DNA of 64,000 nucleotides, from the NCBI GenBank assembly GCA_032718475.1, contig JAUCBJ010008828.1, positions 1 through 64,000 of the forward strand, read 5' to 3'. The notes below the pieces were generated by a model. The model was not told where the DNA came from. It saw nothing but the letters and a program-made list of their open reading frames with translations, and made no database searches. This DNA comes from Nemertoderma westbladi. Its lineage: Eukaryota; Animalia; Xenacoelomorpha. A program made the translations under genes and the position numbers. Positions 1 through 37,000 of this stretch are shown piece by piece. Position 1 is the first letter of the stretch, and every line of letters begins with the position of its first letter.

Positions 1-1000
1 GAAGTCCATCAAAAATCTGAATGTAATTTATGGAGAGAAGTAGCTTTATAAATTGAAGGAGTAAACTTTTGAGTCCAAACTGACGAAGCTTATAGATGAG
101 TTTATATACTCCTCGGAACAGAATCAAATATGCCTTCTTAAAGTCTGCAAAGCATGCGAAAAAGTTTAAAAATTAAAATTAGAAAAAAATTAAAAAGTTT
201 CTAAGACATTTCGAGAGAATGCTTGTGAGTATTTTGTAGACATTACAGAGTAGAGCTAATCCCCTTAGTTATCGGGATCATCACGTGGACCTTTTCCATT
301 AAAAGGACTTTGCAGATACTTGATTTCCGGCAGTACACTACCCGAGTGTTGAGGAGAAGCAAATGTTTAGGAGCATAACCGAGAAAGACAGAGTATATGG
401 CAACGCCGCTTCCAGTAGCTCATTGGGAAGGGAAGACTCATTTCCTTACTTCAGTTTCAGTAAATGCCTTACGATTAGGTCACATATTCCTCCTCGCCTA
501 CATCGCTGCTTTCCGAGGTGTGTCCATCTCAAGAGCGTTTGTTTCGAGAAGCAGGTTGCTAAAATTAGTTCCTCAAGTAGACAGAGGGATTAGACACGGA
601 CGTTGCATTGAATATTTGTGCCACCATAGATAAGGTTCTAATTCGGCATCGTTCTCCAATTTTTCCTCTCTGTGGCTGTTGGAAATGTCAATCTTTTCTT
701 GAAGGTGGTCTTTGTATTCCCGTTTCAGTTTACAAAGATTAAATCGTTGGGATGTATGCTTTTTGAAGTTTGGCTTCATGGTGTTTAGCGCGAAGTTCTT
801 TGCGCATAGGGATTGTTTCTCCTCGTGTTATCAAATGGCAAATCTAAGTCTTCTTGTTAAGTGTGAAATAAATCATAAAGTTTCCAAAAGCCGTATAATA
901 TTTAAACAGCCAGTACAGAACACTTTTAGAAAATATAATTAAAAATTCAATCCCGATCCCGAAAATCGGGATCCTGAGAGTGATAATCCCGAAAAGTGCA
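1..1000 (+). mobile_element. Degenerate hAT-like DNA transposon remnant (transposase C-terminal dimerisation region plus subterminal repeats)
   Basis: Broken frames at ~420-620 give HWEGKTHF...ALRL...SQERLFREAG...RLDTDVALN, resembling the hAT C-terminal 'SERxFSxAG...RL' motif. Clustered ATCCCG/CGGGAT motifs at 948-992. Many stops and frameshifts. Confidence 0.45.
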
Positions 1001-1184: not shown

Positions 1185-4100
1185 ATCACTCACTCAACCA
1201 CATGGTAATTCCTCCCACTACCCACTCACTCACCCCTACGGTAAATCCATCCACTCACTCAACCCCACGGTAATTCCTCCCACTCACTCACCCCCACGGT
1301 AAATCCACCCAATCACTCACCCCCACGGTAAATCCACCCACTCACTCACCCCCACAATAAATCCTCCCACTACCCACTCACTCACCCCCACGGTATAAAT
1401 CCACCCAATCACTCACCCCCACGGTAAATCCACCCACTCACTCACCCCCACGGTAAATCCTCCCACTACCCACTCACTCACCCCCACGGTAAATCCACCC
1501 ACTCACTCACCCACACGGTAAATCCTCCCACTACCCACTCACTCACCCCCACGGTAAATCCACCCACTCACTCACCCCCACGGTAAATCCTCCCACTACC
1601 CACTCACTCACCCCCACGGTAAATCCACCCACTCACTCACCCACACGGTAAATCCTCCCACTACCCACTCACTCACCCCCACGGTAAATCCACCCACTCA
1701 CTCACCCACACGGTAAATCCTCCCACTACCCACTCACTCACCCCCACGGTAAATCCACCCACTCACTCACCCCCACGGTAAATCCAGCCACTCACTCACC
1801 CCCACGGTAAATCCTCCCACTACCCACTCACTCACCCCCACGGTAAATCCACCCACTCACTCACCCCCACGGTAAATCCAGCCACTCACTCACCCCCACG
1901 GTAAATCCCCCACCCACTCACTCACCCCCACGGTAAATCCACCCACTCACTCACCCACACGGTAAATCCAGCCACTCACTCACCCCCACGGTAAATCCAG
2001 CCACTCACTCACCCCCACGGTAAATCCAGCCACTCACTCACCTCCACGGTAAATCCAGCCACTCACTCACCCACACGGTAAATCCAGCCACTCACTCACC
2101 CCCACGGTAAATCCACCCACTCACTCACCCCCACGGTAAATCCACCCACTCACTCACCCCCACGGTAAATCCACCCACTCACTCACCCCCCACGGTAAAT
2201 CCAGCCACTCACTCACCCACACGGTAAATCCACCCACTCACTCACCCCCCACGGTAAATCCAGCCACTCACTCACCCACACGGTAAATCCAGCCACTCAC
2301 TCACCCCCACGGTAAATCCACCCACTCACTCACCCCCACGGTAAATCCACCCACTCACTCACCCCCACGGTAAATCCACCCACTCACTCACCCACACGGT
2401 AAATCCAGCCACTCACTCACCCCCACGGTGAATCCAGCCACTCACTCACCCCCACGGTAAATCCACCCACTCACTCACCCCCACGGTAAATCCACCCACT
2501 CACTCACCCCCCACGGTAAATCCAGCCACTCACTCACCCACACGGTAAATCCAGCCACTCACTCACCCCCATGGTAAATCCACCCACTCACTCACCCCAC
2601 GGTAAATCCACCCACTCACTCACCCCACGGTAAATCCACCCACTCACTCACCCCACGGTAAATCCAGCCACTCACTCACCCCCACGGTAAATCCAGCCAC
2701 TCACTCACCCCCACGGTGAATCCAGCCACTCACTCACGCCCACGGTAAATCCAGCCACTCACTCACCCCCACGGTAAATCCACCCACTCACTCACCCCCC
2801 ACGGTAAATCCAGCCACTCACTCACCCCCCACGGTAAATCCAGCCACTCACTCACCCCCACGGTAAATCCACCCACTCACTCACCCACACGGTAAATCCA
2901 GCCACTCACTCACCCCCACGGTAAATCCAGCCACTCACTCACCCCCACGGTAAATCCATCCACTCACTCACCCACACGGTAAATCCACCCACTCAATCAC
3001 CCCCACGGTAAATCCAGCCACTCACTCACCCCCACGGTAAATCCAGCCACTCACTCACCCCCATGGTAAATCCACCCACTCACTCACCCCCATGGTAAAT
3101 CCACCCACTCACTCACCCACACGGTAAATCCACCCACTCACTCACCCACACGGTAAATCCAGCCACTCACTCACCCACACGGTAAATCCACCCACTCACT
3201 CACCCCCACGTTAAATCCAGCCACTCACTCACCCCCACGGTAAATCCAGCCACTCACTCACCCCCACGGTAAATCCACCCACTCACTCACCCCCACGGTA
3301 AATCCAGCCACTCACTCACCCCCACGGTAAATCCAGCCACTCACTCACCCCCACGGTAAATCCAGCCACTCACTCACCCCCACGGTAAATCCAGCCACTC
3401 ACTCACCCCCACGGTAAATCCACCCACTCACTCACCCCCACGGTAAATCCAGCCACTCACTCACCCACACGGTAAATCCACCCACTCACTCACCCCACGG
3501 TAAATCCACCCACTCACTCACCCCCACGGTAAATCCACCCACTCACTCACCCCCACGGTAAATCCACCCACTCACTCACCCCCACGGTAAATCCAGCCAC
3601 TCACTCACCCCCACGGTAAATCCAGCCACTCACTCACCCCCACGGTAAATCCAGCCACTCACTCACCCCCACGGTAAATCCAGCCACTCACTCACCCCCA
3701 CGGTAAATCCACCCACTCACTCACCCCCACGGTAAATCCAGCCACTCACTCACCCACACGGTAAATCCACCCACTCACTCACCCCACGGTAAATCCACCC
3801 ACTCACTCACCCCCACGGTAAATCCAGCCACTCACTCACCCCCACGGTAAATCCAGCCACTCACTCACCCCCACGGTAAATCCACCCACTCACTCACCCC
3901 CACGGTAAATCCAGCCACTCACTCACCCACACGGTAAATCCACCCACTCACTCACCCCCACGGTAAATCCAGCCACTCACTCACCCCCACGGTAAATCCA
4001 CCCACTCACTCACCCCCACGGTAAATCCACCCACTCACTCACCCCCACGGTAAATCCAGCCACTCACTCACCCCCACGGTAAATCCAGCCACTCACTCAC

Positions 4101-4332
4101 CCACACGGTAAATCCAGCCACTCACTCACCCCCACGGTAAATCCAGCCACTCACTCACCCACACGGTAAATCCACCCACTCACTCACCCCCACGGTAAAT
4201 CCAGCCACTCACTCACCTCCACGGTAAATCCAGCCACTCACTCACCCACACGGTAAATCCAGCCACTCACTCACCCCCACGGTAAATCCACCCACTCACT
4301 CACCCCCACGGTAAATCCAGCCACTCACTCAC
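1185..4332 (-). repeat. Intronic minisatellite, 29-bp unit (minus strand CTGGATTTACCGTGGGG-GTGAGTGAGTGG), roughly 105 copies, each containing a 5' splice-site copy
   Basis: Period 29 is visible directly (ccactcactcacccccacggtaaatcca[g/c]). The array abuts the exon end at 4333 and decays toward 1185. Confidence 0.97.
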
Positions 4333-4507
4333 CCCCTGGTAACGTAGTTTTTCCTCCTGCGTTCGCTTGTCGTACTTCGCCTTGGTTACGGGATCCATCG
4401 CTCGCCACAGACCCCCCAACTCCACGCTGAGCTTAGCAACCGACCAATCAGGGTGCTCCTCTCTCAGTTTGGGTCTGTAATCCCCGGCGAATAGAAAGAA
4501 GCCGGAC
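4333..4507 (-). CDS. HMGB/Dsp1-like protein, coding exon 5 (HMG box B); terminal exon not found in window
   Basis: ttcAG|G TCC GGC TTC...TAC CAG GGG|GTGAGT. Encodes SGFFLFAGDYRPKLREEHPDWSVAKLSVELGGLWRAMDPVTKAKYDKRTQEEKLRYQG. Phase-2 join with the previous exon (AT|G = Met). Confidence 0.93.
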
Positions 4508-4844
4508 CTGAAATTATCGAATATATGTGAAATACACAAAACTTATTACAGAACTTTAATGGCTGTGCGTAATAACAGTGGGTGGAGAGTTAAAGTGATG
4601 TTTTAGAGTTGGCTGATATTGGAAATTAATAATCAACAACAACTAAGGGATATCGTCTCAATGTAAAATTATTAATTAAGGGAAAGGAGCAGGTTATAGT
4701 GAGACGTTATTCTAACCAAAACAATAAACGAATGTCAATAGAAAGGTTACACTTTGATTTTTAAAAGTAATCAGCTGTTATTTGAGTCGAATTTCCGCTG
4801 GGGAGAGGTGAATTTTTATTGTCACAGAAAGTCACCCTTATCTG

Positions 4845-5145
4845 CGCCAACGTGAAGAATACCAGGTTTTCACTTTTCGGTCGAAATTCTACTGGAATTT
4901 TATATATGAAGAATTTGTATTTTTCCAAATTTCACCTTATAAGTGTTTTATAGCGCTTATTTCTGTCTTATAACCTATAGATATATATTCGTTTATTGTT
5001 TTGGTTAGATTCAGCCCTTCTGAAATCTGTGGTATTAGTGGAAACATGGTATTCTGCACATGGGGGTAAACTGCAAAGTGAAATATAACGGCAGAAAGTC
5101 TGGTATACCTCTGCACTCGGTACATAAATACATTGGCCCATGTAC
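4845..5145. mobile_element. Small non-autonomous DNA element (MITE-like), inverted relative of the copy at 10165-10447
   Basis: Shares GTGAAGAATACCAG ends and the internal AATCTAACCAAAACAATAAACGAAT block (reverse orientation) with 10165-10447 and 10600-10775. Related pieces at ~4655-4835 and ~7775-7945. Confidence 0.6.
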
Positions 5146-5182: not shown

Positions 5183-5319
5183 ATCGCTCGTTTTGGTGCA
5201 TCGGGATCCTTCTTCCGCCCACGCACTTTGCCCCCCATCATCTCGACATCGTGCTTGTATCGGGCTTTATCATTATCCGCCATATCCTTATAAGGAGTTT
5301 TATCCTCCGTGGACATTCC
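5183..5319 (-). CDS. HMGB/Dsp1-like protein, coding exon 4 (end of box A, linker)
   Basis: ccccAG|GGA ATG...CGA GCG AT|GTGAGT. Encodes GMSTEDKTPYKDMADNDKARYKHDVEMMGGKVRGRKKDPDAPKRA(M), with the HMGB linker KKDPxAPKR. Confidence 0.93.
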
Positions 5320-5371
5320 CTGGGGAATAAAGAGGAAAACTCACCTTCCCATGTCAATGAGGTAATAATAT

Positions 5372-7501
5372 AAACTTACGTTCCAAATTGGGTAACATAC
5401 AAACTTACGTTCCAAATTGGGTAACATATAAACTACGTTCCAAATTGAGTAAAATATAAACTTACGTTCCAAATTGAGGAACATATAAACTTACGTTCCA
5501 AATTAAGGAAAATATAAACTTACGTTCCACTTTGAGAAACATATAAACTTACGTTCCACTTTGAGGAACATATAAACTTAAGTTCCACTTTGAGGAACAT
5601 GTAAACTTACGTTCCACTTTGAGGAACATATAAACTTACGTTCCACTTTGGGTAACATATAAACTTACGTTCCACGTTGATGAACATATAAACTTACGTT
5701 CCACTTTGAGGAACATATAAACTTACTTTCCACTTTGGGTTAAATATAAACTTACGTTCCACTTTGAGGAACATATAAACTTACGTTCCACTTTGGGTTA
5801 AATATAAACTTACGTTCCACTTTGAGGAACATATAAAACTTACGTTCCACTTTGGGTAACATATAAACTTACGTTCCACTTTGGGTAACATATAAACTTA
5901 CGTTCCACTTTGGGTAACATATAAACTTACGTTCCACTTTGGGTTAAATATAAACTTACGTTCCACTTTGATGAACATATAAACTTAAGTTCCACTTTGG
6001 GTAACATATAACTTACGTTCCACTTTGAGGAACATAAACTTACGTTCCACTTTGGGTAACATATAAACTTACGTTCCACTTTGGGTAACATATAAACTTA
6101 CGTTCCACTTTGGGTAACATATAAACTTACGTTCCACTTTGGGAAACATATAAACTTACGTTCCACTTTGGGTAACATATAAACTTACGTTCCACTTTGA
6201 GGAACATAAACTTACGTTCCACTTTGGATAACATATAAACTTACGTTCCACTTTGGGTAACATATAAACTTACGTTCCACTTTGGGTAACATATAAACTT
6301 ACGTTCCACTTTCGGTAACATATAAACTTACGTTCCACTATGAGGAACATAAACTTACGTTCCACTTTGGGTAACATATAAACTTACGTTCCACTTTGGG
6401 TAACATATAAACTTACGTTCCACTTTGGGTAACATATAAACTTACGTTCCACTTTGGGTAACATATAAACTTACGTTCCACTTTCGGTAACATATAAACT
6501 TACGTTCCACTATGAGGAACATAAACTTACGTTCCACTTTGGGTAACATATAAACTTACGTTCCAAATTGAGGAAAATAAAAACTTACGTTCCACTTTGG
6601 GTAACATATAAACTTACGTTCCACGTTGGGTAACATATAAACTTCGTTCCACTTTTATAGGAACATATAAACTTACGTTCCACTATGAGGAACATAAACT
6701 TACGTTCCACTTTGGGTAACATATAAACTTACGTTCCAAATTGAGGAAAATAAAAACTTACGTTCCACTTTGGGTAACATATAAACTTACGCTCCACTTT
6801 GGGTAACATATAAACTTACGTTCCGATTTGGGTAACATATAAACTTACGTTCCACTTTGGGTAACATATAAACTTACGTTCCGATTTGGGTAACATATAA
6901 ACTTACGTTCCACTTTGGGTAACATATAAACTTACGTTCCACTTTGAGGAACATACATATAAACTTATGTTCCACTTTGAGGAACATATATATAAACTTA
7001 CGTTCCACTTTGAGGAACATGTAAACTTACGTTCCACTTTGGGTAACATATAAACTTACGTTCCAAATTGAGGAAAATAAAAACTTACGTTCCACTTTGG
7101 GTAACATATAAACTTACGTTCCACGTTGGGTAACATATAAACTTCGTTCCACTTTTATAGGAACATATAAACTTACGTTCCACTATGAGGAACATAAACT
7201 TACGTTCCACTTTGGGTAACATATAAACTTACGTTCCAAATTGAGGAAAATAAAAACTTACGTTCCACTTTGGGTAACATATAAACTTACGCTCCACTTT
7301 GGGTAACATATAAACTTACGTTCCGATTTGGGTAACATATAAACTTACGTTCCACTTTGGGTAACATATAAACTTACGTTCCGATTTGGGTAACATATAA
7401 ACTTACGTTCCACTTTGGGTAACATATAAACTTACGTTCCACTTTGAGGAACATACATATAAACTTACGTTCCACTTTGAGGAACATATATATAAACTTA
7501 C
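5372..7501 (-). repeat. Intronic minisatellite, mostly 29-bp unit (minus strand TATGTTACCCAAAGTGGAAC-GTAAGTTTA), roughly 70 copies of the exon 3 donor junction
   Basis: Period 29 (tccactttgggtaacatataaacttacgt). The unit equals the exon end TGTTCCTCAAAGTGGAAC plus GTAAGTTTATA. A ~500-bp higher-order duplication is present (6641 vs 7141). Confidence 0.97.
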
Positions 7502-7639
7502 GTTCCACTTTGAGGAACAGGCTCTGCTGAACTCCTTGAAGTCGACGCTGCCGCCGGGGTCCAACACTTTGATTCGATCTCGTTCGCTCTTTACAAAAAA
7601 TGCGTAGGCGGACATTCTACCTTTCGGTTTTGCCTCATC
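7502..7639 (-). CDS. HMGB/Dsp1-like protein, coding exon 3 (HMG box A)
   Basis: tttAG|GAT GAG GCA AAA CCG AAA GGT AGA ATG TCC GCC TAC...TGG AAC|GTAAGT. DEAKPKGRMSAYAFFV...VDFKEFSRACSSKWN matches HMGB box A (KPRGKMSAYAFFV...F.EFSK.CSE.W). Confidence 0.95.
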
Positions 7640-8104
7640 CTAAACACAAAAATAAACTGTTTCGTAACCGAAAGAAAACCTCAGCCACATGACGCAAACC
7701 AAATCTCGTCGAATTATAAATTATGCGAAAGGAGCAGATTACTCAAAACCCACCTTGGCGAATTAATATCCCGCCTCAATGTAAAATTCTCAATTTAGGG
7801 AAAGGAGCTGGTTACAGTGGCACGTTATTTTAACCTAAACAATAAACTAAACACAATAGAACAGGTTACAGTTTTATTTTTGAGAGTAATCAGCTGTTAT
7901 TTGCTTTGAATTTCCCCTGGAGAGGGATGAATTTTTATTGCGTCCAATTTTCCCCTCTATATCTGGCAAACCCTGTGAATTAAAATGCTTCGGAATATCA
8001 ATATCATTTATTTCCACACAAAAACTTCGGATTTTCTGTATACCGGTACCTTGTTTTTATAATTTTGCTGTATAAAAATGCTTCTTCTGTAACACCTCAC
8101 TAAC

Positions 8105-9542
8105 GGGTGTAAACGTTGTACCGACAGTGTGCCGACAGTATCGGCGTTACGTTGTGCCGACAGTATCGGCGTTACGTTGTGCCGACAGTGTCGGTGTTAC
8201 GTTGTGCCGACAGTATCGGCGTTACGTTGTGCCGACAGTATCGGCGTTACGTTGTGCCGACAGTGTCGGTGTTACGTTGTGCCGACAGTATCGGTGTTAC
8301 GTTGTGCCGACAGTGTCGGTGTTACGTTGTGCCGAAAGTGTGGGTGTTACGTTGTACCGACAGTGTGCCGACAGTATCGGCGTTACGTTGTGCCGTCAGT
8401 GTCGGTGTTACGTTGTGCCGACAGTATCGGCGTTACGTTGTGCCGACAGTGTCGGTGTTACGTTGTGCCGACAGTATCGCCGTTACGTTGTGCCGACAGT
8501 ATCGGCGTTACGTTGTGCCGACAGTATCGGTGTTACGTTGTGCCGACAGTGTCGGTGTTACGTTGTGCCGACAGTATCGGCGATACGTTGTGCCGACAGT
8601 ATCGGCGTCACGTTGTGCCGACAGTATCGGCGTTACGTTGTGCCGACAGTATCGGCGTTACGATGTTCCGACAGTGTCGGTGTTACGTTGTGCCGACAGT
8701 GTCGGTGTTACGTTGTGCCGACAGTATCGGCGTTACGTTGTACCGACAGTATCGGCGTTACATTGTGCCGACAGTGTCGGCGTTACGTTGTGCCGACAGT
8801 GTCGGTGTTACGTTGTGCCGACAGTATCGGCGTTACGTTGTGCCGACAGTGTCGGTATTATGTTGTGCCGACAGTGTCGGTATTATGTTGTGCCGACAGT
8901 ATCGGCGTTACGTTGTACCGACAGTATCGGCGTTACGTTGTGCCGACAGTATCGGCGTTACGATGTTCCGACAGTGTCGGTGTTACGTTGTGCCGACAGT
9001 GTCGGTGTTACGTTGTGCCGACAGTATCGGCGTTACGTTGTACCGACAGTGTCGGCGTTACGTTGTGCCGACAGTGTCGGCGTTACGTTGTACCGACAGT
9101 GTCGGCGTTACGTTGTGCCGACAGTGTGGCGGATTGAAACCTAAATACAAATAGGAGACTGAAGGATAAATCAGCTGGGTTTCTGGCAAAATACAGCAAT
9201 GCCATTCAGCCATTTTGACCTGTCTGCCTGTACACTTACAGTACTTACTGCCTTAACATCCTAAAAACATACATATCCTACAGTCTCCTATTCTGCTATT
9301 TGTATTTAGGTTACAGCCCGCCACACTGTCGGCACAACGTAACGCCTACCTACACTGTCAGCACAACGCAAGGCCGACATAGTCGGCACAACATAACGCC
9401 GACACTGTCAGCACATTATCTGCACTGTCGGCACAACGTAACGCCTACCTACACTGTCGGCACAACATAACGCCGACACTGTCAGCTCAGCACATTATCT
9501 ACACTGTCGGGTCGGCACAGTTTCGGTACAACATTGACACCC
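8105..9542. mobile_element. Foldback/Mutator-like non-autonomous element with modular TIRs and 9-bp TSD
   Basis: Ends GGGTGTAAACGTTGTACCGA...TCGGTACAACATTGACACCC are inverted. CTCACTAAC is duplicated at 8096-8104 and 9543-9551. Inner arms ~9128-9165 and ~9275-9322 are also inverted. Confidence 0.85.
8116..9127 (+). repeat. 25-bp tandem repeat (GTGCCGACAGT[A/G]TCGG[C/T]GTTACGTT, about 40 copies) forming the left arm of the foldback element
   Basis: Period 25 seen directly, with an internal palindrome CCGAC-AGT-GTCGG. Inverted degenerate units at 9320-9530. The three overlapping ORFs are repeat artefacts. Confidence 0.95.
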
Positions 9543-9555: not shown

Positions 9556-9858
9556 CTTCCTCTGCGTCTGTTTCCCAGCTGCCCTTGATGGCGCCGCTTG
9601 AGCCGGTTGCTGCATCATATACTGCGGCGCCGCAGCCACCGCCATCGGCTGGGCCTGTACCGTCTGCACCTGTCCCGCCACCGACGGCTGCATTGCGCCG
9701 GCTGTCGTGGTGTAGAACTGCGGCTGTCCAGACGCGTACTGCGCCGCCGCAGCCTGCGCCGCAGCCGCTTGTGCTGCAGCAAATTGCTGCGGAGTGTATT
9801 GCGGGATACTTTGTGCTGCGGCGGCTCCGTATTGTGCCGCGGCTCCCTGGAACCAATC
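9556..9858 (-). CDS. HMGB/Dsp1-like protein, coding exon 2 (Ala/Gln-rich N-terminal region)
   Basis: aaacAG|GAT TGG TTC CAG...AGG AAG|GTTAGT. 303 nt, phase 0/0, stop-free: DWFQGAAAQYGAAAAQSIPQYTPQQFAAAQ...AAGKQTQRK. Not shown in this frame by the ORF track. Confidence 0.88.
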
Positions 9859-10164: not shown

Positions 10165-10447
10165 CGGCCCATGTGAAGAATACCAGACTTTCTGCCGTTA
10201 TATTTCACTTTGCAGTTACCCTCATGTGAAGAATACCAGGTTTTCACCAAAACCACAGGTAACAGAAGGGTTGAATCTAACCAAAACAATAAACGAATAC
10301 TTATAAGTACAGGTTATAAGACAGAAATAAGCGCCTAAAACACTTAATAAAGATAAATTAAAAAAAATAAAAAATCTTCATATATAAAATTCCAATAAAA
10401 AGTCGACCGAAAAGGAAAATCCTGATGGTATTCTTCACATGGGCGCT
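10165..10447. mobile_element. MITE with TIRs (CCCATGTGAAGAATACC...GGTATTCTTCACATGGG)
   Basis: About 17-bp terminal inverted repeats. Related copies lie in neighbouring introns. Confidence 0.7.
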
Positions 10448-11933
10448 TACACCGACTGGACTACTACATTCACAACTAGGTAAGGTGTGTGAAGGTGTAG
10501 TCGACGACCGCCTTATTGACTTAAGTTTATTGTTTTGGTTACAATAAAGTTAACCTGCTCCTTTCCCTTAAATAAAAAATTAACATTGTGACAAGATATT
10601 AATTTCACTAAAAACACAGGTTACAAAAGGGCTGAATCTAACCAAAACAATAAACGAATTAGTATCTGTACAGGTTCTTAGAAAGAAATTGAGGTACAAA
10701 TTCTACCTCATATAAAATTCCAATAAACTTTCGACCAAAAATGTAAAAACCTGGTATTATTCACAAAAGCGCACAGGGTGGGTAAAAATTATAAAAAAGT
10801 TAAACAAAAAATTTTAGAAAACCGTGGACTATGATCTAATCTGCCAAATTTTCTGAACAGTCAATTATATAATGGCCGCTCATTAATTCTGTTTCGTTAA
10901 TTTATTTCATTAATAATTTTTTGTCGACCGAAAAATAATTAATGTCGACCAACAAAAAAATTATTTGTCAACAATTAAGTCATATATAGCGTATGGGAAA
11001 GATGGGATGGTTTAATTAATTTAAATAATAATATCCGTTAAATAAAATCAACTACGTTAATAATTAACATATTCTAAAGAGTTACCAGCAGGAACAGCCA
11101 TTCACAAGCAATGCTATCCGATCTCATTAACATAATGAGTATGCGAACCAGGCCCAAATAATACTAAGGTGGTTAGCCTGGCAACCATTGACGTAATGGA
11201 AATGAACCCAGGCAGGCAGCTGAGCCAAAAACACGTAAAGCTTAGTCAACCTAGCTACTGGTCCCATAGAGACAATGTAAAGGCTTGGCAGGCCTCTTGG
11301 ATGGAGCCAGCAAGAACTAATATACTGCCCCAATGGCGTATATTGGATAATGGCGTAGGCGAGCTCAGCAATGTGGAAATATAACTGATTCACCTTAATT
11401 TGCACAAAAAAACCATATAAAAAAGAGGAAAAGAAAAAATAAAACATACGTATAATACGTAACGCAGTGCGGGGAATCTCGTGGTAACATTTGTTTCTGC
11501 AAAAAGTAAAGTATAAACGAATAAAACGGATAAACATGTCAATAAATGCCATGAAAAACGAGCTAAAATGGCGTCCATTAATCTCTATGGGAGAAAAGCC
11601 GGGTTTAATCAGTGAAACTGATAAATCAACGATTTACAATCTAAAATTTAACCACCTAAATTATTATAAATATGTCTATAAATCAATAGATGCAATGTCA
11701 ATCATTCCTAAAAGCTTTTAGTAGCAAAAAAATGTAAGAAAATTGGTTTAGAAACGGAAATAATCGACTGCAAACATCCCCATGTTGAGAATGCCTGCAA
11801 TGATAACCTATGGGCCCATAGAATAATATTACGCATAAACAAGTTTTAAAACTTAAATATATCAAACGATTTACAACAAAAACAAATTCTACATAGCACA
11901 AGTTGTTAAGATATGATATGGCAATGTACTCAC

Positions 11934-11936
11934 CAT
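11934..11936 (-). CDS. Putative start-codon-only first coding exon of the HMGB/Dsp1-like gene
   Basis: AAAAATG|GTGAGTAC gives a phase-0 join to exon 2 (M-DWFQ...). A CCAAT box lies upstream on the minus strand (~12093-12098). Inferred, no transcript evidence. Confidence 0.6.
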
Positions 11937-14068: not shown

Positions 14069-14202
14069 TATAAAAGCAAAGAGGTGGACAATGGGACATG
14101 AGGAAGTGGAACTTTTGGGAGTAGGCATCACAGACCCCACTGCCATATATGTGTAGGTACATGTACATCTACTTACCATTCCATGGGTGTTGCACTGCAT
14201 CT

Positions 14203-16563
14203 TGCATTGATCTCGATTGCTACAAAGCTATACAATAGAATTCTATTAAATCGCATCAGGGATCCCATTGAGAGACTGCTCCGTGGAAATCAAAATGGGT
14301 TCCGTAAAGGTCGTGGGACCATGGAGCCCATTTTGGCACTTAGAAGGATAATTGAAGAGTTATCAAAAAAGAAAGACAGGCATCTGGCTGTTATCTTTGT
14401 TGACTTCTTCAAGGCCTTTGATTCAGTCTCTCGCTCACGTATGTTCAGCATACTTTCATTATATGGGATTCCTGATGAAATTATTGCAGCAATCAGATCA
14501 GTATACGATGGTTCGACAACATTTGTGTCTACTGTTGACGGTGACACAGAACCATTTGAAGTGTTATGGGGCGTCCTCCAGGGAGACACACTTGCACCAT
14601 TCTTGTTCATAATTGTGGTTGACTATGTTCTACGCATGTCCTTAGATCATCATAATGATGATGGGGTGATGATAACTCCACCTACTGGCTCCAGAAGTCG
14701 AGGAAATCCTGCAAGTACCTAACTGATCTAGACTTTGCTGATGACTTAGGAGTACTCTCAGAATCGCTAGAGGGAGCCCAACGGCTCCTCAGCTCATTAG
14801 AACATGCTGCTTCTAGTGTTGGTCTTTTTATTAACTCCAGAAAGACCAAAATTTTGACAGTTAACTTTGAAAGTTCTCAGCAAGTCTCTGATCGGATGAG
14901 CATAAGCTCAAAGGATGGTATGCTTGAGCATGTGGACGACTTCTGTTACCTGGGATCATGGATCCGGAAGTCAGGTGAGGACCTTCGAATACGTAAGGGA
15001 AAGGCATGGGCAGCTTTGAATAGGCTTTCCAGGATTTGGAAGTCACCGAGAATTAATCGGAAACTTAAGGTCCGACTATTTAGAGCAGCAGTAGTTCCAG
15101 TACTCCTCTACGGGAGTCCATGCTGGGCTCTAACTGCTGAGGACACCAAATCTCTGGATGGCACATTCACAAGAATGCTACGCCGTGTTCATTGTGTCAA
15201 GTACAATGCACACATCTCCAACCAGACACTATATAACATTGGAGGTGACTCATTGGTTCCCCCAAGCTTGACACTAGAACAAAATCGCCTCCGCTTTGCA
15301 GGACATTGCTTTCGCCGTGAGGACCAGCCAGTGCATAATCTTGTACTTTGGCAGCCTCATGGAGTGAATAAGCATGGTGGACAGCCCATGACTTTCTTGA
15401 GACGCATCTTAAAGGACACTGGCCTTGAAGATGCGGATGATCTAGCAAATGTCATGGGTGATAGGGAGTTGTGGCGGTGCAATTTTGTTGACAAGCCGGC
15501 ACAGCATTCTTAAAAAGGCAGCTGCAATGCAGCATGCCGATCCTAGTAGTAGTAGAGAATTAATCGGAAACTTAAGGTCCGGTTATTTAGAGCAGCAGTA
15601 GTTCCAGTACTCCTCTATGTGAGTCCATGCTGGTCTCTAACTGCTGAGGACACCAAATCTCTGGACGGCACATTCACAAGAATGCTACGCCGGGTTCATT
15701 GTGTCAAGTTCAATGCACACATCTCCAACCAGACACTATATAACATTGGAGGTGTCTCATTGGTTCCCCCAAGCTTGACACAAGAACAAAATCGCCTCCG
15801 CTTTGCAGGACATTGCTTTCGCCGTGAGGACCAGCCAGTACATAATCTTGTACTTTGGCACCCTCATGGAGTGAATAAGCATGGTGGACAGCCCATGACT
15901 TTCTTGATACGCATCTTAAAGGACACTGGCCTTGAAGATGCGGATGATCTAGCAAATGTCATGGGTGATAGGAAGTTGTGGCGGTGCAATTTTGTCGATA
16001 AGCCGGCACAGCATTCTTAAAAAGGCAGCTGCAATGCAGCATGCCGATCCTAGTAGTAGTAGAGAATTAATCGGAAACTTAAGGTCCGGTTATTTAGAGC
16101 AGCAGTAGTTCCAGTACTCCTCTATGTGAGTCCATGCTGGTCTCTAACTGCTGAGGACACCAAATCTCTGGACGGCACATTCACAAGAATGCTACGCCGG
16201 GTTCATTGTGTCAAGTTCAATGCACACATCTCCAACCAGACACTATATAACATTGGAGGTGTCTCATTGGTTCCCCCAAGCTTGACACAAGAACAAAATC
16301 GCCTCCGCTTTGCAGGACATTGCTTTCGCCGTGAGGACCAGCCAGTACATAATCTTGTACTTTGGCACCCTCATGGAGTGAATAAGCATGGTGGACAGCC
16401 CATGACTTTCTTGATACGCATCTTAAAGGAAACTGGCCTTGAAGATGCGGATGATCTAGCAAATGTCATGGGTGATAGGAAGTTGTGGCGGTGCAATTTT
16501 GTCGATAAGCCGGCACAGCATTCTTAAAAATGCAGCTGCAATGCAGCATGCCGATCCTAGTAG
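14203..16563 (+). mobile_element. 5'-truncated RTE-clade LINE (RT, frameshifted) with its 3' ~507 bp present three times
   Basis: QNGFRKGR, DFFKAFD, GVLQGDTLAPFLF, DLDFADD (frameshift at ~14715). (TAG)n tails at ~15543, ~16050 and ~16558. 12-bp TSD TGCACTGCATCT at 14191-14202 and 16564-16575. Confidence 0.92.
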
Positions 16564-16899: not shown

Positions 16900-17710
16900 T
16901 ATCACGCACCAGTAATTTCGTCTGATTCTGTCAAACTCCCTGTGTTTTGGACATCCGAACCAGAGAAGTTTGGTTTGCTCAGGTGGAGGCTCAGTTTGAA
17001 ACGAGAACACCCCCGAATACTACTACTAGTATCGGCATGCTGCATTGCAGCTGCATTTTTAAGAATGCTGTGCCGGCTTGTCGACAAAATTGCGCCGCCA
17101 CAACTCCCTATCACCCATGACATTTGCTAGATCATCCGCATCTTCAAGACCAGTGTCCTTTAAGATGCGTCTCAAGAAAGTCATGGGCTGTCCACCATGC
17201 TTATTCACTCTATGGGGTTGCCAAAGTACAAGATTATGCACTGGCTGGTCCTCACGGCGAAAGCAATGTCCTGCAAAGCGGAGGCGACTTTGTTCTAGTG
17301 TCAAGCTTGGGGGAACCAATGAGACACCTCCAATGTTATATAGTGTCTGGTTGGAGATGTGTGCATCCCCGAATACTGTCAACAAGACAAAGTTTAATTA
17401 CATCGTTGCAGTTCTGGACAATGCCACTGCTAAGGAAGTTAGATCGATTATCCTCAGCCCTCCAATTGATGATCGCTATGAAACTTTGAAGACAGCCCTT
17501 AAATCTCTAGCGGCCATAGACAATTAATTATTCTCATTATCTGGTCCTGGGGACTGTAAACCGTCGGGACTGCTTCGACACATGCATTCTCTCAATGGTA
17601 ACCTTCTCAATGGATATTTTCCGTGCTCTTTTCTTGACTCAAATGCCTATCGAAGTGCGCCGTATCCTGATTGGTTCCAAAACGTCGGAGCTTGACCAAC
17701 TGGTAATAGA
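16900..17710 (+). mobile_element. Ty3/Gypsy gag relic, interrupted by an RTE fragment
   Basis: VKLPVFWTSEPE..FAQVEAQFETR | NKTKFNYIVAVLDNATAKEVRSIILSPPIDDRYETLK...GDCKPSGLLRHM, typical of invertebrate Gypsy gag. Frameshifted. Confidence 0.75.
17022..17366 (-). mobile_element. Short 3'-end copy of the same RTE family, inverted
   Basis: Matches 15207-15550 in reverse and has a (TAG)n tail. 11-bp TSD CCCCGAATACT at 17011-17021 and 17367-17377. Confidence 0.92.
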
Positions 17711-17740
17711 GGTGGCAACAGTTCCTTTGCAATATATACT

Positions 17741-19861
17741 TTGCAAGTAAATGACAGCTATGAGTACTTTGAACGTGAAATTGAAACGGTGTTTAATGCA
17801 CATGTACCACTAAAAAGAAAGTTAATTAAAAGAAACAAAAATTTGAAACAAAACGAGTGGTATACAAAAGAATTGGAAGACCTAAAATGTGACAAGGATA
17901 CAAAATTATATAAATTTCGATCGACAAAAACCACCGAAGATTATAAAATATTCAAATTAGCTAGAAATAAATATAACAACCTAAATAGCCGATTGAAAAA
18001 TATGCATATCAAGTCAAAATTTGTAAATGAAAAATCAGTTCGCTCCCGTTGGTCTATAATTAATTCAATATTAAATAAAAACAAAAATAACAATCCAGTT
18101 GAACAAATTCAAAATGCAAAGGGCTATAAAATCACGGATCCGATAAAAATTGCAAATATATTCAATCGCGTATTCGAAAAATTAGGTGAATTTAAAAAAT
18201 TTACAAATAAAATGATATCAAAACAGCCAAATAGTAGTTATATAGCAACACAAAATGCAGACGATACATTTGCTTTTAAAAACATATCTGAATTTGAAAT
18301 AATGAATATTCTCGAAAAACTTAATACAAATAAACCAAACGGGCCGTCTAACTTACCACCACGTATAATTAAATTAGCGAGATCAAAAATTATATTTCCA
18401 TTTACATCAATAATAAATAAATGCCTCACAACATCTACTTTTCCTGATAAATTAAAAGCCGCATATGTTACACCTGTATTTAAAGACGGAGACAGACTGA
18501 AACCTACTAACTACAGGCCGATTGCAGTTATATCTACCTTCAGTAAAATATTTGAAACTGTGATACTGAACCAAATGCTTAATTACGTTACAGACGAGAA
18601 AATAATTAATCGTAGACAATTTGGATTTAGAAAACGTTATTCTACTACTGATGCATTAATATACACAACAGAAACCTGGCGATCATCATTAGACAAAAAT
18701 AAATATGTCGCAGTTGCAGCTCTAGACTTAGCGAAAGCATTTAATTCCATTAATCATAAAATATTGCTTGAAAAATTAACTAGATTGGGGTTTCACAGTA
18801 CATCGATTCGATTACTAAATAGTTACTTAACCGACAGAAAACAAAAAGTAAAGATAAATAATGTTTTTTCGGAATGGGTCAAAATTAACAGGGGGGTACC
18901 ACAGGGAACACAGCTAGGGCCGCTTTTGTACCTACTATACGCTAACGATATTGCACTACTAAAAGATCTAGACCTAGTACAATACGCCGATGACACATTG
19001 ATATTTTACACCCATTCAGACCCACAAACTGCAACTAAAATTCTCTCAGAGCAAATAACCGCAGTAGAAAAGGAATTGACAAAAAATCAGCTCATGTTAA
19101 ATACAGGTAAAACTAAATTTATACTAATATCACCAAAACAACGAAATGACAATGTAAATACAATCACCCTTGATACAGCAACATGTAAAATAGAACAATG
19201 TACAACATTTAAATATCTAGGAGTAATTTTGGACAATCAGCTTAATTGGAAAGAACAGATAAAAAAGGCTTCACATAAAATGGCGCTAGCCATATCTTGC
19301 CTACGACGAATAAAAGGCCAGCTTCCACGCAAGACTAAGCTAAATATATATAAGGCTACTGTACTTCCCTTTCACAACTACTGTTCACAATTGCTAATAC
19401 CATTACATGACCTACACGGATACAAGCAGTTACTGTACGATCTTGAAAAACAACAGAATTACGCACTACGACTAGTATTTGGGAGGCAAATAAGAGACAG
19501 TACTGGGACCGAACTACGACAACTTGCTAAATTGCCGAATCTACACTCATTGCGTGAATTCAATGGACTCAACTTTTTATTTAAATATATACACAATCTA
19601 TCTATTCCATTTCAATCCTTAACACTACCATTTCTAAATAATATACACACAGACCCACAACTACTAAATGCTCGTACCAAAATTATAAAAATACCAAGGA
19701 CCTATAACAGCTACGGACACAACAGTTTATTAATTTCACTTATCAAATTATGGAACTCAACTGATATCAAACTGAAACAAATTCAATCTCATAAGGAATA
19801 CTACACAACAACAAAGAAAAAGTATTACGAACTACACATGCGCTATGATGAAATCACATAA
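17741..19861 (+). CDS. Reverse transcriptase ORF2 (5'-truncated, no endonuclease) of a CR1/L2-group LINE; the element extends to an A-rich tail at ~20217
   Basis: NYRPIAV, QFGFRK, DLAKAF, GVPQGTQLGPLLYLLYAND, YADD, KYLGVILD motifs. 3' UTR ends in AATAAA/(AAAT)n. Confidence 0.9.
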   Translation: MQVNDSYEYFEREIETVFNAHVPLKRKLIKRNKNLKQNEWYTKELEDLKCDKDTKLYKFRSTKTTEDYKIFKLARNKYNNLNSRLKNMHIKSKFVNEKSVRSRWSIINSILNKNKNNNPVEQIQNAKGYKITDPIKIANIFNRVFEKLGEFKKFTNKMISKQPNSSYIATQNADDTFAFKNISEFEIMNILEKLNTNKPNGPSNLPPRIIKLARSKIIFPFTSIINKCLTTSTFPDKLKAAYVTPVFKDGDRLKPTNYRPIAVISTFSKIFETVILNQMLNYVTDEKIINRRQFGFRKRYSTTDALIYTTETWRSSLDKNKYVAVAALDLAKAFNSINHKILLEKLTRLGFHSTSIRLLNSYLTDRKQKVKINNVFSEWVKINRGVPQGTQLGPLLYLLYANDIALLKDLDLVQYADDTLIFYTHSDPQTATKILSEQITAVEKELTKNQLMLNTGKTKFILISPKQRNDNVNTITLDTATCKIEQCTTFKYLGVILDNQLNWKEQIKKASHKMALAISCLRRIKGQLPRKTKLNIYKATVLPFHNYCSQLLIPLHDLHGYKQLLYDLEKQQNYALRLVFGRQIRDSTGTELRQLAKLPNLHSLREFNGLNFLFKYIHNLSIPFQSLTLPFLNNIHTDPQLLNARTKIIKIPRTYNSYGHNSLLISLIKLWNSTDIKLKQIQSHKEYYTTTKKKYYELHMRYDEIT

Positions 19862-24134: not shown

Positions 24135-27075
24135 CTTTATTCTTATTTATTATTTATTTATTTACCGCAGGCAACATATGGAAAATATAATATATTATAA
24201 TCGCACAATCAGCCCATATCGTCTACCTACGCTACAGCACAATAATTAAGTATGTAATTGATTATGTATGCGTGTACTTAGTAATACTAATAATTCGCTA
24301 AATTAACAGATTTTCGGAATTGCACATTTCAAAAATTCTAGAACTATGCAACGCGGTGTAACAATATACAGCATTTACAATATAATTACTGGAACATTTT
24401 ATCCTACGAAATAAACTTTGAATTGATTTGAAACGTAAATGAATGAAGCACGGAATATTGTTGCAACCAAAGAAATATGACATACTAGAACCTACAGAGA
24501 TGAAAAATAGCTTTCTTGCTGCATTATTGTATGCTACCCTTAACCGATTATAGACAACAGATGAGTAGTTCCTACGTGACCACAGAGCATTACAATATAG
24601 TGGAGTTATAAATGCTAGAAATAAACGAACTTTCACTGCAACGGTACAGGTACTAAATTTTCTAAACAACGTATTTGTACGGGCGTACATACTACCTATT
24701 TGTTTCTTAATGTCAAGATCATCATCACGTGATTCGTGTATTATATGACCCAAATATGTAAATTTATCAGTTCTAGAAATAACACGCTGGTATAAATATA
24801 TTGGAGCTATTGTACTTAAGTTACAAGATTTCGGGCACAAAAACATTACCTTAGTCTTCTTTAAATTAAACATTATAGAATGTGAAATTGCATAATCCTG
24901 ACACACATTAACTAACTTTTGTAAACCTATAAGTGAATTTGACATTAAACCAATGTCGTCTGCATACATTGTATGATTAATCCTTTGACCATTAATTGAA
25001 CAACCTACGTTAGCCATTATAAGTTTACGGGATAAGTCGTCCATGTAAACATTAAATAAATAACCAGATAATATTCCGCCTTGCTTCACGCCATTAAACA
25101 CTGCAAACGTTCTGGAATATGTAGCACCCCAGCGCACTTGTAATGTTTGATGTCGGTACCAAAAGGCTAAAATACGCACCAAATAGAGTGGTACATTCCT
25201 ATTTATTAATTTCTGAAAAAGTTTATCGTGCTCTATTCTGTCAAATGCTTTAGATGCATCCAAGAAACAAATATACATAGGAGAATCATTATCTAAGTAA
25301 TAATCAATAACCTCTTTCAGAGTATATACACAAAGCTCGGTACCGCTATTTGCCTTATATGAGAATTGGTGATCGCTACAAATTAAGAAAGACTGCATTC
25401 TAGATAATAAAATACGTTCAAATATCTTACTTATTGCTGTTGAAATAGCAACGGGCCGATAGTTTGATTTCTCATCTATAGCACCATTTTTATCTTTAAT
25501 GATTGGTACAATAATACTATGAATAATGGAGCTTGGTAAATAACCATGTACCATACAAGAACTGAAAATAAAGCTAATAAAATATTTAGCCTACTACTAT
25601 TACTGTAAATGAAATGTTCCCCAGTCCCCCATGAAATGTCCTATCGCTTTACCTAATTTTAAATTAGCTATTGCACATCCTACTTCTGCTGCACTTATAT
25701 TCATATCAGTTGTGTACAGTACTTTATTTAGTTGTTCGTATATGCTACTGCCAACACAAAACTCAGTTACTCCATTAGTTTTGTTACAATTAAACAATAT
25801 TTCAAAATCGTTTGCAAAATTACTACAAATTTCTCGTTCACCGGTCGCACCACTAACAACATTGGGTAAGGGTATTTTGCACGAAATATCTTTCTTCACG
25901 GATTTCCAAAATGAATTAAAGTCCTTAGAAAGGTTCGATTGTGCTAATTTATCGACCCGTTTTTGATTTTCGGAACGTTTACATTGTCTAAAAATACGTT
26001 TAAAATTTGCTCTGGCGTTAAGGTAGTCATCATGGTGAAGACTACCCTGCCGAGGACAGCCGGCATCTTTCCACTGTATAAAAGTATCCCGAGATTCCTC
26101 ATAGAGCGCTTTAACATGATCATTCCAACCAGGAACGTTGTAACTATTGTTTGAATTCATGTTAATATTATTACTCGGTATGGACGTTGACGCACTTTCT
26201 ACTAAAGCACCTACTATACGGTCCCACAAACTACTAAGATTGTTCACATGTGATTCATCATTACAGTTTATGGAGGTACATGTGAAGGCCTCGGGTATTT
26301 ATATATTATTCAATGAATCATTAAGTCTACGGTAATTATCGAGTTGCACCGGCCGAGCTGCAGTCCAAATAAACTTAGTAGGATTTGTAATCATAGTATC
26401 GCTTTTATCCGTAGTATTTACCGTAGCGTTAACATTAATATCAATAGTAAATCTTAAAGGTATATGATCAATGGTAGCTAGATCATAAATAACATCGACA
26501 TCCTTAATTAAAGAGTCGGACGTGGTGGTGCTGACAATATGGTCTAACCAAGAGGTGGTACTAAATGCTGCACTCACAATTGTAAACGTATGTGGTGGTA
26601 ATCGTTTTACATCGGACAAAATAATTCCGCAATTAGCGCACCAATCAGATAACTCTCTATAAAATGATTTTTGTGGCGAGGCATTAAAATCACCGACTAT
26701 ACAGCATTTCACAGTTGGGGCATTATCAATTATTGATTGTATGCGTCCTAGGTACTCTAAGTACAAATCCAAATTGTCAGATGATTCGAAAGGTAAATAT
26801 AAATTCAATATTAAAATTTTCGATTTATCCGATAGGTTTACATAAAATCCCATTATTCGTTCATCCGCTATATTTAAATACTCAATAGAAGATGAAATTT
26901 CTTCCCTTACCATAACCGCCAGACCTCCATGTGGACGGCCGCGCAATAATCCATTGGATAAATCTACTGAGATTCGCCTCGACAGATAAACTTGTCATCT
27001 ATTTTCGAGAGGAAACTTAATTCCTGTTTCGGAAGTAGATGCTCTTGTAACAAAACAATATCCGAAATATCACAC
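24135..27075 (-). mobile_element. LINE, RTEX-like, disrupted ORF2 (APE endonuclease + RT)
   Basis: Three fragments (26299-26946, 25600-26247, 24298-25554) with GRPHGG, GDFNA, WLDH, DHIP, NYRPVAI, DASKAFD, GVKQGGILS, YADD. (AAT/AAAT)n tail at ~24135-24165. Confidence 0.88.
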
Positions 27076-32802: not shown

Positions 32803-33289
32803 TCCGAACGTTCACTCGCTCACCTGCAAGGTGGTGCCTTACCAAGGCGCAATACAGATGAGTGATGTATCTAGGATGTTCTGTACAGTTCGATAATGGC
32901 CTACTTCTACTTAACTGCGCCTTTTAACCTAAATTATTCCTAATTAATTTTGAAGCTAGTAAATACACCCTAATTTCGATTTCTGTCCGTTACTTTTATT
33001 ATGTTCTAGAATAGCTTCCCTTGTGTTGCCACTATTTTACAATTTTCAGCCCTATTCTATTTATTTATTTATTTACTTTGATTCTACTGTCCTACTACTT
33101 GCTACTGCCTATGGATTACTCTATTCTCTAATCCACATTCTGGCCTACTCTGTGGGTCTATGCAGTACAGCAGTATACGTCGTGTGGCCACACGATTTAC
33201 CCAGCTGTACTCATATGCCCCCCTCTCGCTACTAACTGCTAACTAATATCTATATCTTATATACCCCTTTTACTTCTTACTTTCTCTCT

Positions 33290-33895
33290 TCTAACTAACG
33301 GTACTACGTACCCTCTAACTCTCTAACTAACTAACGGTACTACGTACCTTCTAACTCTCCTCTAACTATCGGTACTACGTACCCTCTAACTCTCTAACTA
33401 ATGGTACTACGTACCCTCTAACTCTCTAACTAACTATCGGTACTGCGTACCCTCTAACTCTCTAACTAACTATCGGTACTACGTACCCTCTAACTCTCTA
33501 ACTAACTATCGGTACTACGTACCCCCTAACTCTTCTAACTAACTATCGGTACTACGTACCCTCTAACTCTTTAACTAACTAACTAACGGTACTTACGTAC
33601 CCTCTAACTAACTCTCTAACTGGCGGTACTACGTACCTCCTAACTAACTAACTAACTAACGGTACTTACGTACCCTCTAACTAACTCTCTAACTGGCGGT
33701 ACTACGTACCTCCTAACTAACTAACTAACTAACGGTACTTACGTACCCTCTAACTAACTCTCTAACTAACTAGCGGTACCACGTACCCTCTAACTAACTT
33801 TCTAACTGGCGGTACTACGTACCTCCTAACTAACTAATTAACTAGGTACTACGTACCTTCTTACTAACTCTCTGCCTACTAACTGCGTACCTACC
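33290..33895. repeat. Internal tandem array of BEL element 1 (GGTACTACGTACC core + (CTAA/CTCT)n spacer, about 15 units)
   Basis: Seen directly between the pol stop and the extra ORF. The core is a short hairpin (GGTAC-TAC-GTACC). Confidence 0.9.
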
Positions 33896-34004: not shown

Positions 34005-37000
34005 CTAAGGTGCCCCTTCTAATAGACAACATTTACCTACAGCTCTCCTGTAGGTTTTTCTGTCCTTCGCACCTATCTTTCCACCTATCCGCACTTCTAC
34101 CGATCGGACTCTTCCGTCCTCGTCGGAGTAGGTGCCTACAACTCTCGCCAACTGCCACTGGTTGTTGATGATAGTATCATCCGTAACGATTACGAGATCT
34201 CCCTCTCTTAACTCCCTGTTCGGCTTCCTCCACTTGCTTCGCTTATGGAGTGTGGGTAGGTATTCCTCGACCCACCTCCTCCAATACTCTGCGCTTATTG
34301 CTTTAGCGACTTTCCAACTTTGGCGGGAGTGTATGTCATCTGGGTCTACACCCCGCATATCGATGGTCGCTGGCCTTTCCATCAGGAAATGGCTAGGCGT
34401 CAGCACGTCTAATGACTCAGGGTCATCATTCTCCGGATATAGCGGTCTGCTATTAATGATCCCCTCGCACTTCGCAAGTACTGTCCGTAAGACGTCCTCA
34501 GTGACCATGTGGGTGTTCATCAGCTTCGTCATTAGACGCTTTGAACTGCCCACTAGTCTCTCGACGCATCCTAGTGTATGTGGTGCATACGGCGTCCTTC
34601 TCTCCCACTTTACTTGTCGTCGTCTCATGGCTGCCCTGACTTCTTCTCCCTCCAGGATGTCCAAGGCCTCTGCCATCTCACTCTCTGCGCCCACAAAGTT
34701 GGTGCCGTTGTCGCTGTATATCACTGCGATCGTCCCACCTTTGCGGTCCCTAAATCTTTCTAAGGCGTTAATGAACGCTGATGCGGTTGCATCTTGGGCG
34801 AGTTCTATCCCTACCGCCCGCGTATTGTTGCATACGAAGATAATGCCGTAGCGTTTCTCCGTGTGTCGCATCACTTTGATCTTTATCGGCCCGAACATGT
34901 CCACACCGCAATGCGTAAATGGCGGGTCGTGCTGTCTTACCCTACTCGCCGGTAGTGGTGCCATCTCCTGTACGGCTCGCTCCTTCTTCGCTCGTCGGCA
35001 GGTCTGGCACTGCCCCACTACCGCTTTAACCTTCTTCCTTAATTGTTTGACCCAATAGGTCCTCCTTATCTCTGTGAGGGTTCGGTTGGTGCCCCCGTGC
35101 AGTATCGATTTGTGGGAGTCCCATATAATCTGGTGGACTATTGGCGATCCTGTAGGAATGATGATGGGTTTCGGTGGTACCACTATGCTGTTGTTGTATC
35201 CCACCCTAGAATTCATTACTAGAATCCCGTCGTCATTGAGTTGTGGCGACAGCGTAATCAGCTCGCTGTCCCGTCGGATGTGCTGTTGGTTACCGACGCG
35301 TTCCACCTCGTCGCCGTAGTTCTTCCGTTGTTCATAGCGGATCACTGCCTTGGCCGCTCCTTCCAGATCTATGGTTGTCCTGATTTTCTTGTCCTTGCCG
35401 ACTCCCGCAAGGAAATTCCCGAAGGCTCTCCAATACGCCACTAGTTTCTTGGTCTTATACCAACTAGAACTGTAGCTGAGGAGTTTATCCGTTGGGTTAT
35501 CGCACAGTTCCCTTCCTGGTTGCACGTCCCTAATCTCCCTCACCATCTGGGAGTATATCTCTTCTCCCTCTGAATCTCCCTCTTCTCCTTCTGATACTAC
35601 TTCCGAGCCCGGGTCCACCTTCCTCATCGGCGGCCAGGCCTCCCTATCGCTCAGAAATTGTGGCCCATGTTGCCACAATACTTCCTTCTTCAGGAAAGTG
35701 TGGCGTTCCACGCCCCTCGACAGCAAGTCCGCTGGGTTCTCGTCTGTTGGGCAGTAGTGCCACCTTTCCAGTTCTGTGCTCGCCCTTATTTCGTCCACTC
35801 TATTCGCGACGAATATCGGGTATCTCGTCTTTTCGTTGTGTAGCCAACCAAGCACTACCATGGAGTCCGTCCAGTAGTGTGTCTCCACTATGTTGGGAAT
35901 AGTATCCACTAGGTAGGCTGTGGCTCTTACTCCTAGTCTCGCAGCTGTCAATTCTAACTTGGGAACAGATGCTGAATCTGGGGGCGTTGACTTTGCTTTG
36001 CTAAAGGCTAGTCTGGGCCTGTGAGCCCCCTCTCGTTGTACTAAGTAGAGTGCCGCTCCGTACGCTTCCAACGACGCGTCGGAGAACATGTGTAGGTCCA
36101 GATTCGTCATGTTCCCATCCGGGAAATACACCCTTGGCATGTTGTATGTTCCCATCTTCTCCAAGTTTCCTGTCCACTTGCTCCACTGTCTCTTGATTTC
36201 CTCTGGTACCTCTACGTCCCACTCATCTTTCAATTTGTATACTCTCTTGAGTATCTCTTTCCCCGTGACTAATAATGGGGATGCTAGGCCTAGGGGATCG
36301 TATATCCTTGCTATATACGATACATAGCCCCTCTTCGTGTGGATGTCTGCGCCCTCCTGGCTCAGCTGATACTTCAGTTCGTCTGTCTTTCTATCCCACA
36401 CGATTCCCAATGCCTTCTGCTGAGATTCTGTTCTCTTAATCGCCATGTCCTGCCCTTTGGCTGTTGTGGGGTTATCCATGGTCGATTCTGGTTTCCTGTC
36501 CTCTATGGCTTTGATAAATTCTTCCGAACTGGATTGGAATTTGGTCAGGTTAAAGCCGGATCCTTTTAGGATGTCGCGAACCTCGCGCCCTGTATCCAGT
36601 ATCTCCTTAACCGTATTCCCAGACTCCATTCCGTCGTCTACGTAGAAGCCACGTCGAATCATATCGACGGCTCTACCGCTGTATCTATCTTCCTTCCCCT
36701 TTACTGTGTCTCTCACTGCCATAGTCGTCGTAAATGAAGACGACTTGGCCCCCATGTTCTGTACTATCATCTTATATGCTGGTATTATCGGCGGTTCTTC
36801 TTCGCCGTTATACCATAAGAAGCGTTGACTGTCGCTATCTTCTTCCGTTACACGGACTTGGTTGAACATGCCTTCTATGTCACACGTGAAGGCGTGTTTC
36901 CCATTTCGAAATCTAAGTAACACCTCTATGCCCGAATTGTAAATGTTTGGGCCTTCTAACAGGTAGTCGTTTAAGCACTTTCCGTCGGTCTTTGCCGATG

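Follow-up and report, generated by a model that had tools for sequence, protein, structure and literature searches.

The third intron of a gene for an HMGB-type protein in Nemertoderma westbladi is made up almost entirely of copies of its own 5' splice site. The intron runs from 7501 to 5320 on the minus strand of the window (the whole stretch of 64,000 nucleotides that was analysed) and is 2182 nt long. Just 60 nt separate the last copy from the acceptor at 5320, so that the array accounts for practically the entire intron. Assembled spliced sequences leave exon 3 at the authentic donor, and the array is probably a minisatellite that straddles the exon 3 donor and is tolerated since splicing picks the first donor by its position.

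The gene lies on the minus strand and encodes a DNA-bending protein of the HMGB type, in which matches to Pfam and HMGB1 follow the order box A, linker, box B. A putative start codon (11934–11936), recognised in the sequence, forms the last codon of the first coding exon (ATG/GTGAGT, the slash here and below marking the splice site). One spliced contig, X5, has 88 letters 5' of exon 2, a length compatible with a first coding exon ending in ATG. Exon 2 (9556–9858, 303 nt, phase 0) encodes an Ala/Gln-rich N-terminal region; its 3' end is joined to exon 3 in the spliced contigs X4 and X5, while its 5' boundary is a sequence prediction. Exon 3 (7502–7639, 138 nt) encodes the first part of box A (Pfam HMG_box_2, E 1.5e-10; HMGB1 residues 5–49, E 1.4e-11) and ends after 7502 in the authentic donor AAC/GTAAGT. 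Exon 4 (5183–5319, 137 nt) contains the end of box A and the linker (HMGB1 residues 52–97), and both contigs join it to exon 3 on one side and exon 5 on the other. Exon 5 (4333–4507, 175 nt) contains box B (Pfam HMG_box, E 8.6e-16; HMGB1 residues 100–156) and has its authentic donor, GGG/GTGAGT, after 4333. These four exons have GT-AG boundaries and when joined form a single open frame. Given the stretches of HMGB1 to which exons 3, 4 and 5 correspond, the join from the first donor is colinear with HMGB1 and free of any insert, and it is the only exon 3–exon 4 join that is colinear. Vertebrate HMGB1 has its introns at these positions. At the 3' end of the gene, no frame for an acidic C-terminal tail follows any [CT]AG acceptor in 1–1197, and the last exon was not found there. 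A candidate last exon at 947–973 (minus strand, acceptor at 974) would extend the protein by just 8 residues and would not supply an acidic tail.

Tandem Repeats Finder places the array at 5368–7519, with a period of 29, 74.0 copies and 88% matches. Parsed into units, it consists on the minus strand of the real donor unit, with its donor after 7502, and 73 copies, whose donors are at 7469, 7436, 7407 and so on to 5380, at a spacing of 27–33 nt, mostly 29. The original prediction, of about 70 tandem copies of the intron's own 5' splice site in units that straddle the exon end and the donor, is thus borne out, the modal 29-nt unit comprising 12 intron nucleotides and 17 exon-derived nucleotides. 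It was correct in placing the array at the start of the intron, but understated its extent, since all but the last 60 nt are filled. That residual sequence (5320–5379, minus strand), with its pyrimidine tract and CAG acceptor, is likely from its sequence to be the intron as it was before the expansion.

GT is retained in 68 of the 73 copies and lost in five, and GTAAGT is kept in 67. The real donor context from -3 to +6 is matched exactly by 64 copies, and the whole context from -18 to +11 is unchanged in nine. The 17-mer AAGTGGAAC/GTAAGTTT, which had been said to be present in most units, is found in 44 of the 73 (60%); across the window the minus strand contains it 45 times (the real site and these 44 copies) and the plus strand never, far above chance. 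There are 29 distinct unit types. The array also contains a higher-order duplication of 500 nt, in which 7519–7020 and 7019–6520 are identical at 497 of 500 positions.

The two copies nearest the exon are 33 nt each and in frame, reading VSLYICSSKWN and VSLYVCSSKWN exactly as predicted. No stop precedes the corresponding donors, 7469 and 7436, and both have the same sequence as the real donor. The fourth donor shifts the frame, and an in-frame TAA at +97 to +99 is present in all products from donors past the fourth. The expectation that later units would be out of frame therefore holds to the extent that only copies 1 and 2 near the exon are in frame, but the main block is this TAA, whatever the frame. 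The two in-frame donors speak for a possible regulatory or isoform device, which would lengthen box A by 11 or 22 residues, feed nonsense-mediated decay (NMD), or hold the transcript by loading it with U1 snRNP. In chicken, a repeat RNA with many predicted donors is reported to concentrate spliceosomal snRNAs (bioRxiv 10.64898/2026.03.19.712899). However, the insert would sit directly after a conserved tryptophan (W49 of HMGB1). Moreover, the 500-nt duplication has placed the pair of 33-nt units a second time at 7002–6936, deep in the array and beyond stop codons, so that the in-frame pair need not be adaptive. Together with the contig evidence described below, this makes a device of this kind quite improbable.

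An internal duplication with 497 of 500 identities can arise by assembly error, and the total length of the array rests on the assembly, no contig spanning it. The sequencing runs nevertheless make it extremely improbable that the array or its duplication is an artefact, one of the outcomes that were to overturn the original prediction. Six runs were listed, five of them containing part of the region; none is recorded as RNA, X4 and X5 being listed as 'DNA?'. For X3 the comparison of coverage took in exon 3 alone, and for X1 exons 4–5 alone. Two DNA runs, X2 from study P2 and X3 from study P1, have a single-copy exon 3 contig that ends at 7490, where the 31-mers of the assembly become two-copy because of the 500-nt duplication inside the array. 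A 63-nt array contig of X3 has 2.29 times the single-copy depth, against 2.36 times expected from the assembly, and a 62-nt contig of X2 matches the far end of the array (5770–5831) at 2.92 times, against 2.31 times expected. The array is therefore matched at both ends by DNA contigs from two studies, which argues against an error of assembly. The assembly itself may derive from one of these studies. X3 differs from the window at 7526 and so carries an allele other than the assembled one.

The choice of donor can be seen in X4 (study P3) and X5 (study P1), which cover exons only and skip intron 4 at GT..AG. The single-copy parts of introns are covered by X1 and X2 and are absent from X4 and X5. 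On the basis of this exon-only cover, we take X4 and X5 to be RNA. In each of them one contig covers exon 3 over 7641–7501, with loose ends that are the start of exon 4 and the end of exon 2. The X4 contig is 561 nt long with a depth of 1358, with exons 3, 4 and 5 at record positions 81–221, 221–359 and 360–533; the X5 contig is 863 nt long with a depth of 38. Exons 2-3-4-5 are unbroken in both, exons 3, 4 and 5 being assigned to one record by length and depth. The first donor, after 7502, is thus used in two of two RNA-like runs, this being the main product only, as contigs drop rare variants. An origin of the spliced contigs from a retrocopy is unlikely, the depth of the intron 4 joint being 0 in the DNA runs X1 and X2.

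No contig uses the donor at 7469 or any later one, and those of X4 and X5 include none within 7465–7500, at a contig level at which rare or NMD-sensitive products are not visible. Products containing stops would be depleted by NMD, and their absence from contigs therefore does not measure how often they are formed. Use of the last copy as donor would leave a 60-nt intron, but also 2.1 kb containing stops in the mRNA. The strict selection of the first donor that had been proposed fits the contigs of both studies, whereas the proposed roles as a source of isoforms, in NMD-coupled regulation or in U1 loading find no support, either in contigs or in any extra conservation of the donor positions.

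It is of interest to ask what distinguishes the first donor from the others. Donor strength does not, 64 of the 73 copies being identical to it. Nor does RNA structure: in predicted accessibility the real donor is no more open than the copies, ranking 16th of 74 in this array (and 74th of 107 in the second array, in intron 5, described below). Since the copies are identical and the accessibility ordinary, the feature that distinguishes the real donor is its position. Recursive splicing was also considered. A ratchet point has YAG immediately before GT. Here the unit junction is AAC/GT and not YAG/GT, and the entire array contains only five YAG, which leads us to reject recursive splicing.

Selection on the copied donors was assessed by comparing distinct mutations per position at -3 to +6 with those in the rest of the unit, a comparison of low power (22 and 16 substitution types in the two arrays). 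In the intron 3 array, four mutations at nine positions were found against 18 at 20, a non-significant lean toward conservation of the donor positions (p 0.14; 0.30 with indels). In the intron 5 array the counts were 5 against 11 (p 0.63; 0.33 with indels). Purifying selection on the copied donors was thus not detected in either. The modal units show drift away from the exon sequence as well as homogenisation, and there are higher-order blocks of 500 and 172–173 nt. From their sequences, the arrays show ordinary minisatellite turnover. The end of exon 3 is predicted to form a 6-pair hairpin (-6.6 kcal/mol), and the intron 5 array is G-rich; both features could promote slippage.

Arrays that span a donor have been described before. 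In minigenes of the 37-bp VNTR of human F7 intron 7, the most upstream intact donor is reported to be used, and if it is mutated the next one takes over (Borensztajn et al. 2006, PMC1557585). The HMGB array is like that of F7 in that its first unit lies across the exon–intron boundary, identical donors follow downstream and the most upstream is used. It differs in scale, F7 having 5–9 units of 37 bp with 4 exon nucleotides and HMGB 74 units of 29 nt with 17–18, and in that it fills nearly the whole intron and is accompanied by a second array in the same gene. For F7 the competence of the copies and the length polymorphism have been demonstrated (PMC1557585), whereas the HMGB copies are known from sequence. 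The same source describes donor-spanning minisatellites of 10–26 units in the human genes 6-16, CBS (IVS13), LMNB2 and PDGF (intron 4). In 6-16 and CBS the second and third donors are also used (PMC1557585), which lends some weight to a regulatory role; in HMGB no such use is seen at the sensitivity of contigs.

The 25-bp VNTR of human ABCA7 intron 18 is reported to range from about 12 to 427 units with a donor in the unit, and a minor product retains one unit; the length of the array affects disease risk and how often the following exon is skipped (PMC5954066). The 74 or 107 units of the HMGB arrays are therefore no record. The ABCA7 unit begins with the GT and contains no exon sequence (PMC5954066), in contrast to the HMGB units, which include exon-derived nucleotides. 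A further parallel is with the 'mirages' of amphioxus, described in Adh3, the globins BflGb6 and BflGb9, troponin C and PGBD5, where normal splicing is reported to be undisturbed (PMC3087553, PMC3902484). These too are tandem duplications of exon–intron boundaries in a non-vertebrate animal, with units that evolve in concert. The globin mirages, however, have 3–6 units of 150–160 bp and involve both types of boundary (PMC3087553, PMC3902484), while the HMGB arrays involve donors only and are far longer. A GTEx paper on tandem repeats and splicing does not, in the portion of its text consulted, address donor-spanning arrays (PMC10078293).

The HMGB array shares with F7-type arrays and mirages a head-to-tail unit of 10–100 nt, a first unit that spans the boundary, a repeated donor and main use of the upstream donor. 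The HMGB donor arrays are thus a further case of the published donor-spanning minisatellites.

The second array, of 106 copies, went unmentioned in the original prediction. It lies at 1198–4344 on the minus strand and consists, according to Tandem Repeats Finder and the unit parse, of the real donor unit of intron 5 and its copies, 107 units in all with a period of 29. The G-rich 29-nt unit contains about 11 exon-derived and 18 intron nucleotides, with two overlapping GTGAGT motifs (at +1 and +5) and a G-tract in each unit; there are 23 unit types. GTGAGT is kept in 103 of the 106 copies, and the context from -3 to +6 is identical in 80. The units of the two arrays are alike in little but the donor, which points to separate origins, each from its own boundary. 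The first copy shifts the frame, with a stop at +31, and the array is without any in-frame, stop-free copy, a further point against a device that lengthens the protein. The X4 contig matches the window as far as 4332 and diverges beyond it, which fits use of the first donor of this array. With X5 the match to exon 5 ends at 4338 rather than 4333, and 4338 is the first difference between the exon and the array unit. An allele, a contig tip or conversion of the exon end by the array could account for this.

The window contains other repeats. Intron 2 has a 25-nt satellite at 8128–9510, whose inverted arms (8128–9125 and 9323–9510) flank a core of roughly 200 nt that has inverted ends; the whole looks like a foldback or MITE-type element. 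A dispersed repeat of very high copy number (4649–5116; summed contig depth 1e4–2e5, where single copy is about 20) occupies most of intron 4, and related pieces lie in introns 1 and 2 at 7761–7940, 10180–10446 and 10514–10764. A BEL/Pao-type retrotransposon at 34005–40832 (minus strand) has an open frame of 2275 codons, and a 36-nt tandem array just downstream of this frame (33284–33865) is probably in its LTR. Neither the 25-nt nor the 36-nt array consists of donor copies. Reverse transcriptase frames of LINE type are present at 14102–15513, 17696–19861, 24298–26994 and 50147–53284, one of them of 1045 codons with endonuclease and reverse transcriptase domains. An open frame of 215 codons occurs twice on the plus strand, at 45816–46463 and 54405–55052, with 2 differences in 648 nt, within a duplication of about 4 kb (44861–48797 and 53503–57308); its one Pfam hint, to KIAA0319_N (E 0.007), is weak and below the cut-off, and it has no usable atlas match. 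A comparison of 35 ORFs and exons with Pfam gave no second multi-exon gene in the rest of the window, the non-HMGB matches being retroelements.

The presence of two donor arrays in one gene exceeds what a uniform model would give, roughly 0.04 given the first, and this counts against tolerance of chance expansions as a full account. It raises the possibility that 5' splice sites are, as a general process in this lineage, favoured places for arrays to arise or survive, either through a mutational bias at donors or because many U1 sites would guard an expanding intron from premature cleavage; on this view two unrelated units would have been amplified, each on its own, at two donors of a single essential chromatin gene. 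Two of the five HMGB donors seed arrays, with unrelated units, and none of the four located acceptors does. For the null model, the arrays were collapsed, which leaves a gene of about 4.5 kb, in which a random 29-nt seed spans one of the five donors with p 0.023; given the selected array, one or both of the two others would then be at a donor with a probability of 0.037, as a rough figure. In addition, intron 3 has no AATAAA or ATTAAA in its 2182 nt, against three in the 675 nt of intron 4, and the amphioxus work describes mirages as possibly general in that group (PMC3087553). Against this, the evidence is from one gene, picked for its first array, and the null disregards both the purging of arrays seeded in exons and the possibly shorter introns that preceded the insertion of other repeats. 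A 29-nt unit without AATAAA is unremarkable, and the donor positions of the copies carry no conservation signal. Among titles and abstract openings, we found no published genome-wide test of enrichment at donors versus acceptors, and no report of the HMGB case. On balance a general bias toward donors seems unlikely, though appreciably less so than a regulatory device. It is compatible with use of the first donor, and with the tolerance of a donor-straddling minisatellite that we prefer.

We therefore propose that the tolerated minisatellite arose as follows. A piece of about 29 nt lying across the donor would have been duplicated by slippage, with the hairpin at the exon end perhaps helping. 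Unequal exchange or more slippage would then have expanded and homogenised the copies, taking an intron of about 60 nt to 2.2 kb. The spliceosome would pick the most upstream donor by its position, anchored on the exon and working 5' to 3', and not by strength or accessibility; choice by position in the human F7 minigenes suggests that the same mechanism operates here. Any leakage past the fourth donor would meet a premature stop and be cleared by NMD. The tolerance of copies would allow donor arrays to persist and drift. Since the first donor is the one used in the assembled transcripts, splicing removes the copies as part of the intron, and they are probably close to neutral. Some leakage at low level is plausible, in view of the use of downstream donors in 6-16, CBS and ABCA7, and the further donors of 6-16 and CBS and the exon-skipping effect in ABCA7 indicate that donor arrays need not be silent.

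As a single locus the array matters little, both its design and its splicing outcome having been published already. It does provide a clean natural case of donor choice by position, in which 64 identical competitors are present, the last copy lies just 60 nt from the acceptor, and the main mRNA is nevertheless made from the first donor. The two independent donor arrays in one gene are the sole hint of anything beyond the known cases. If a preference for donors were true genome-wide, the splicing machinery, through U1 binding or splicing-coupled DNA slippage, would govern where satellites grow and how introns gain length, and this animal would offer many natural tests of first-donor selection.
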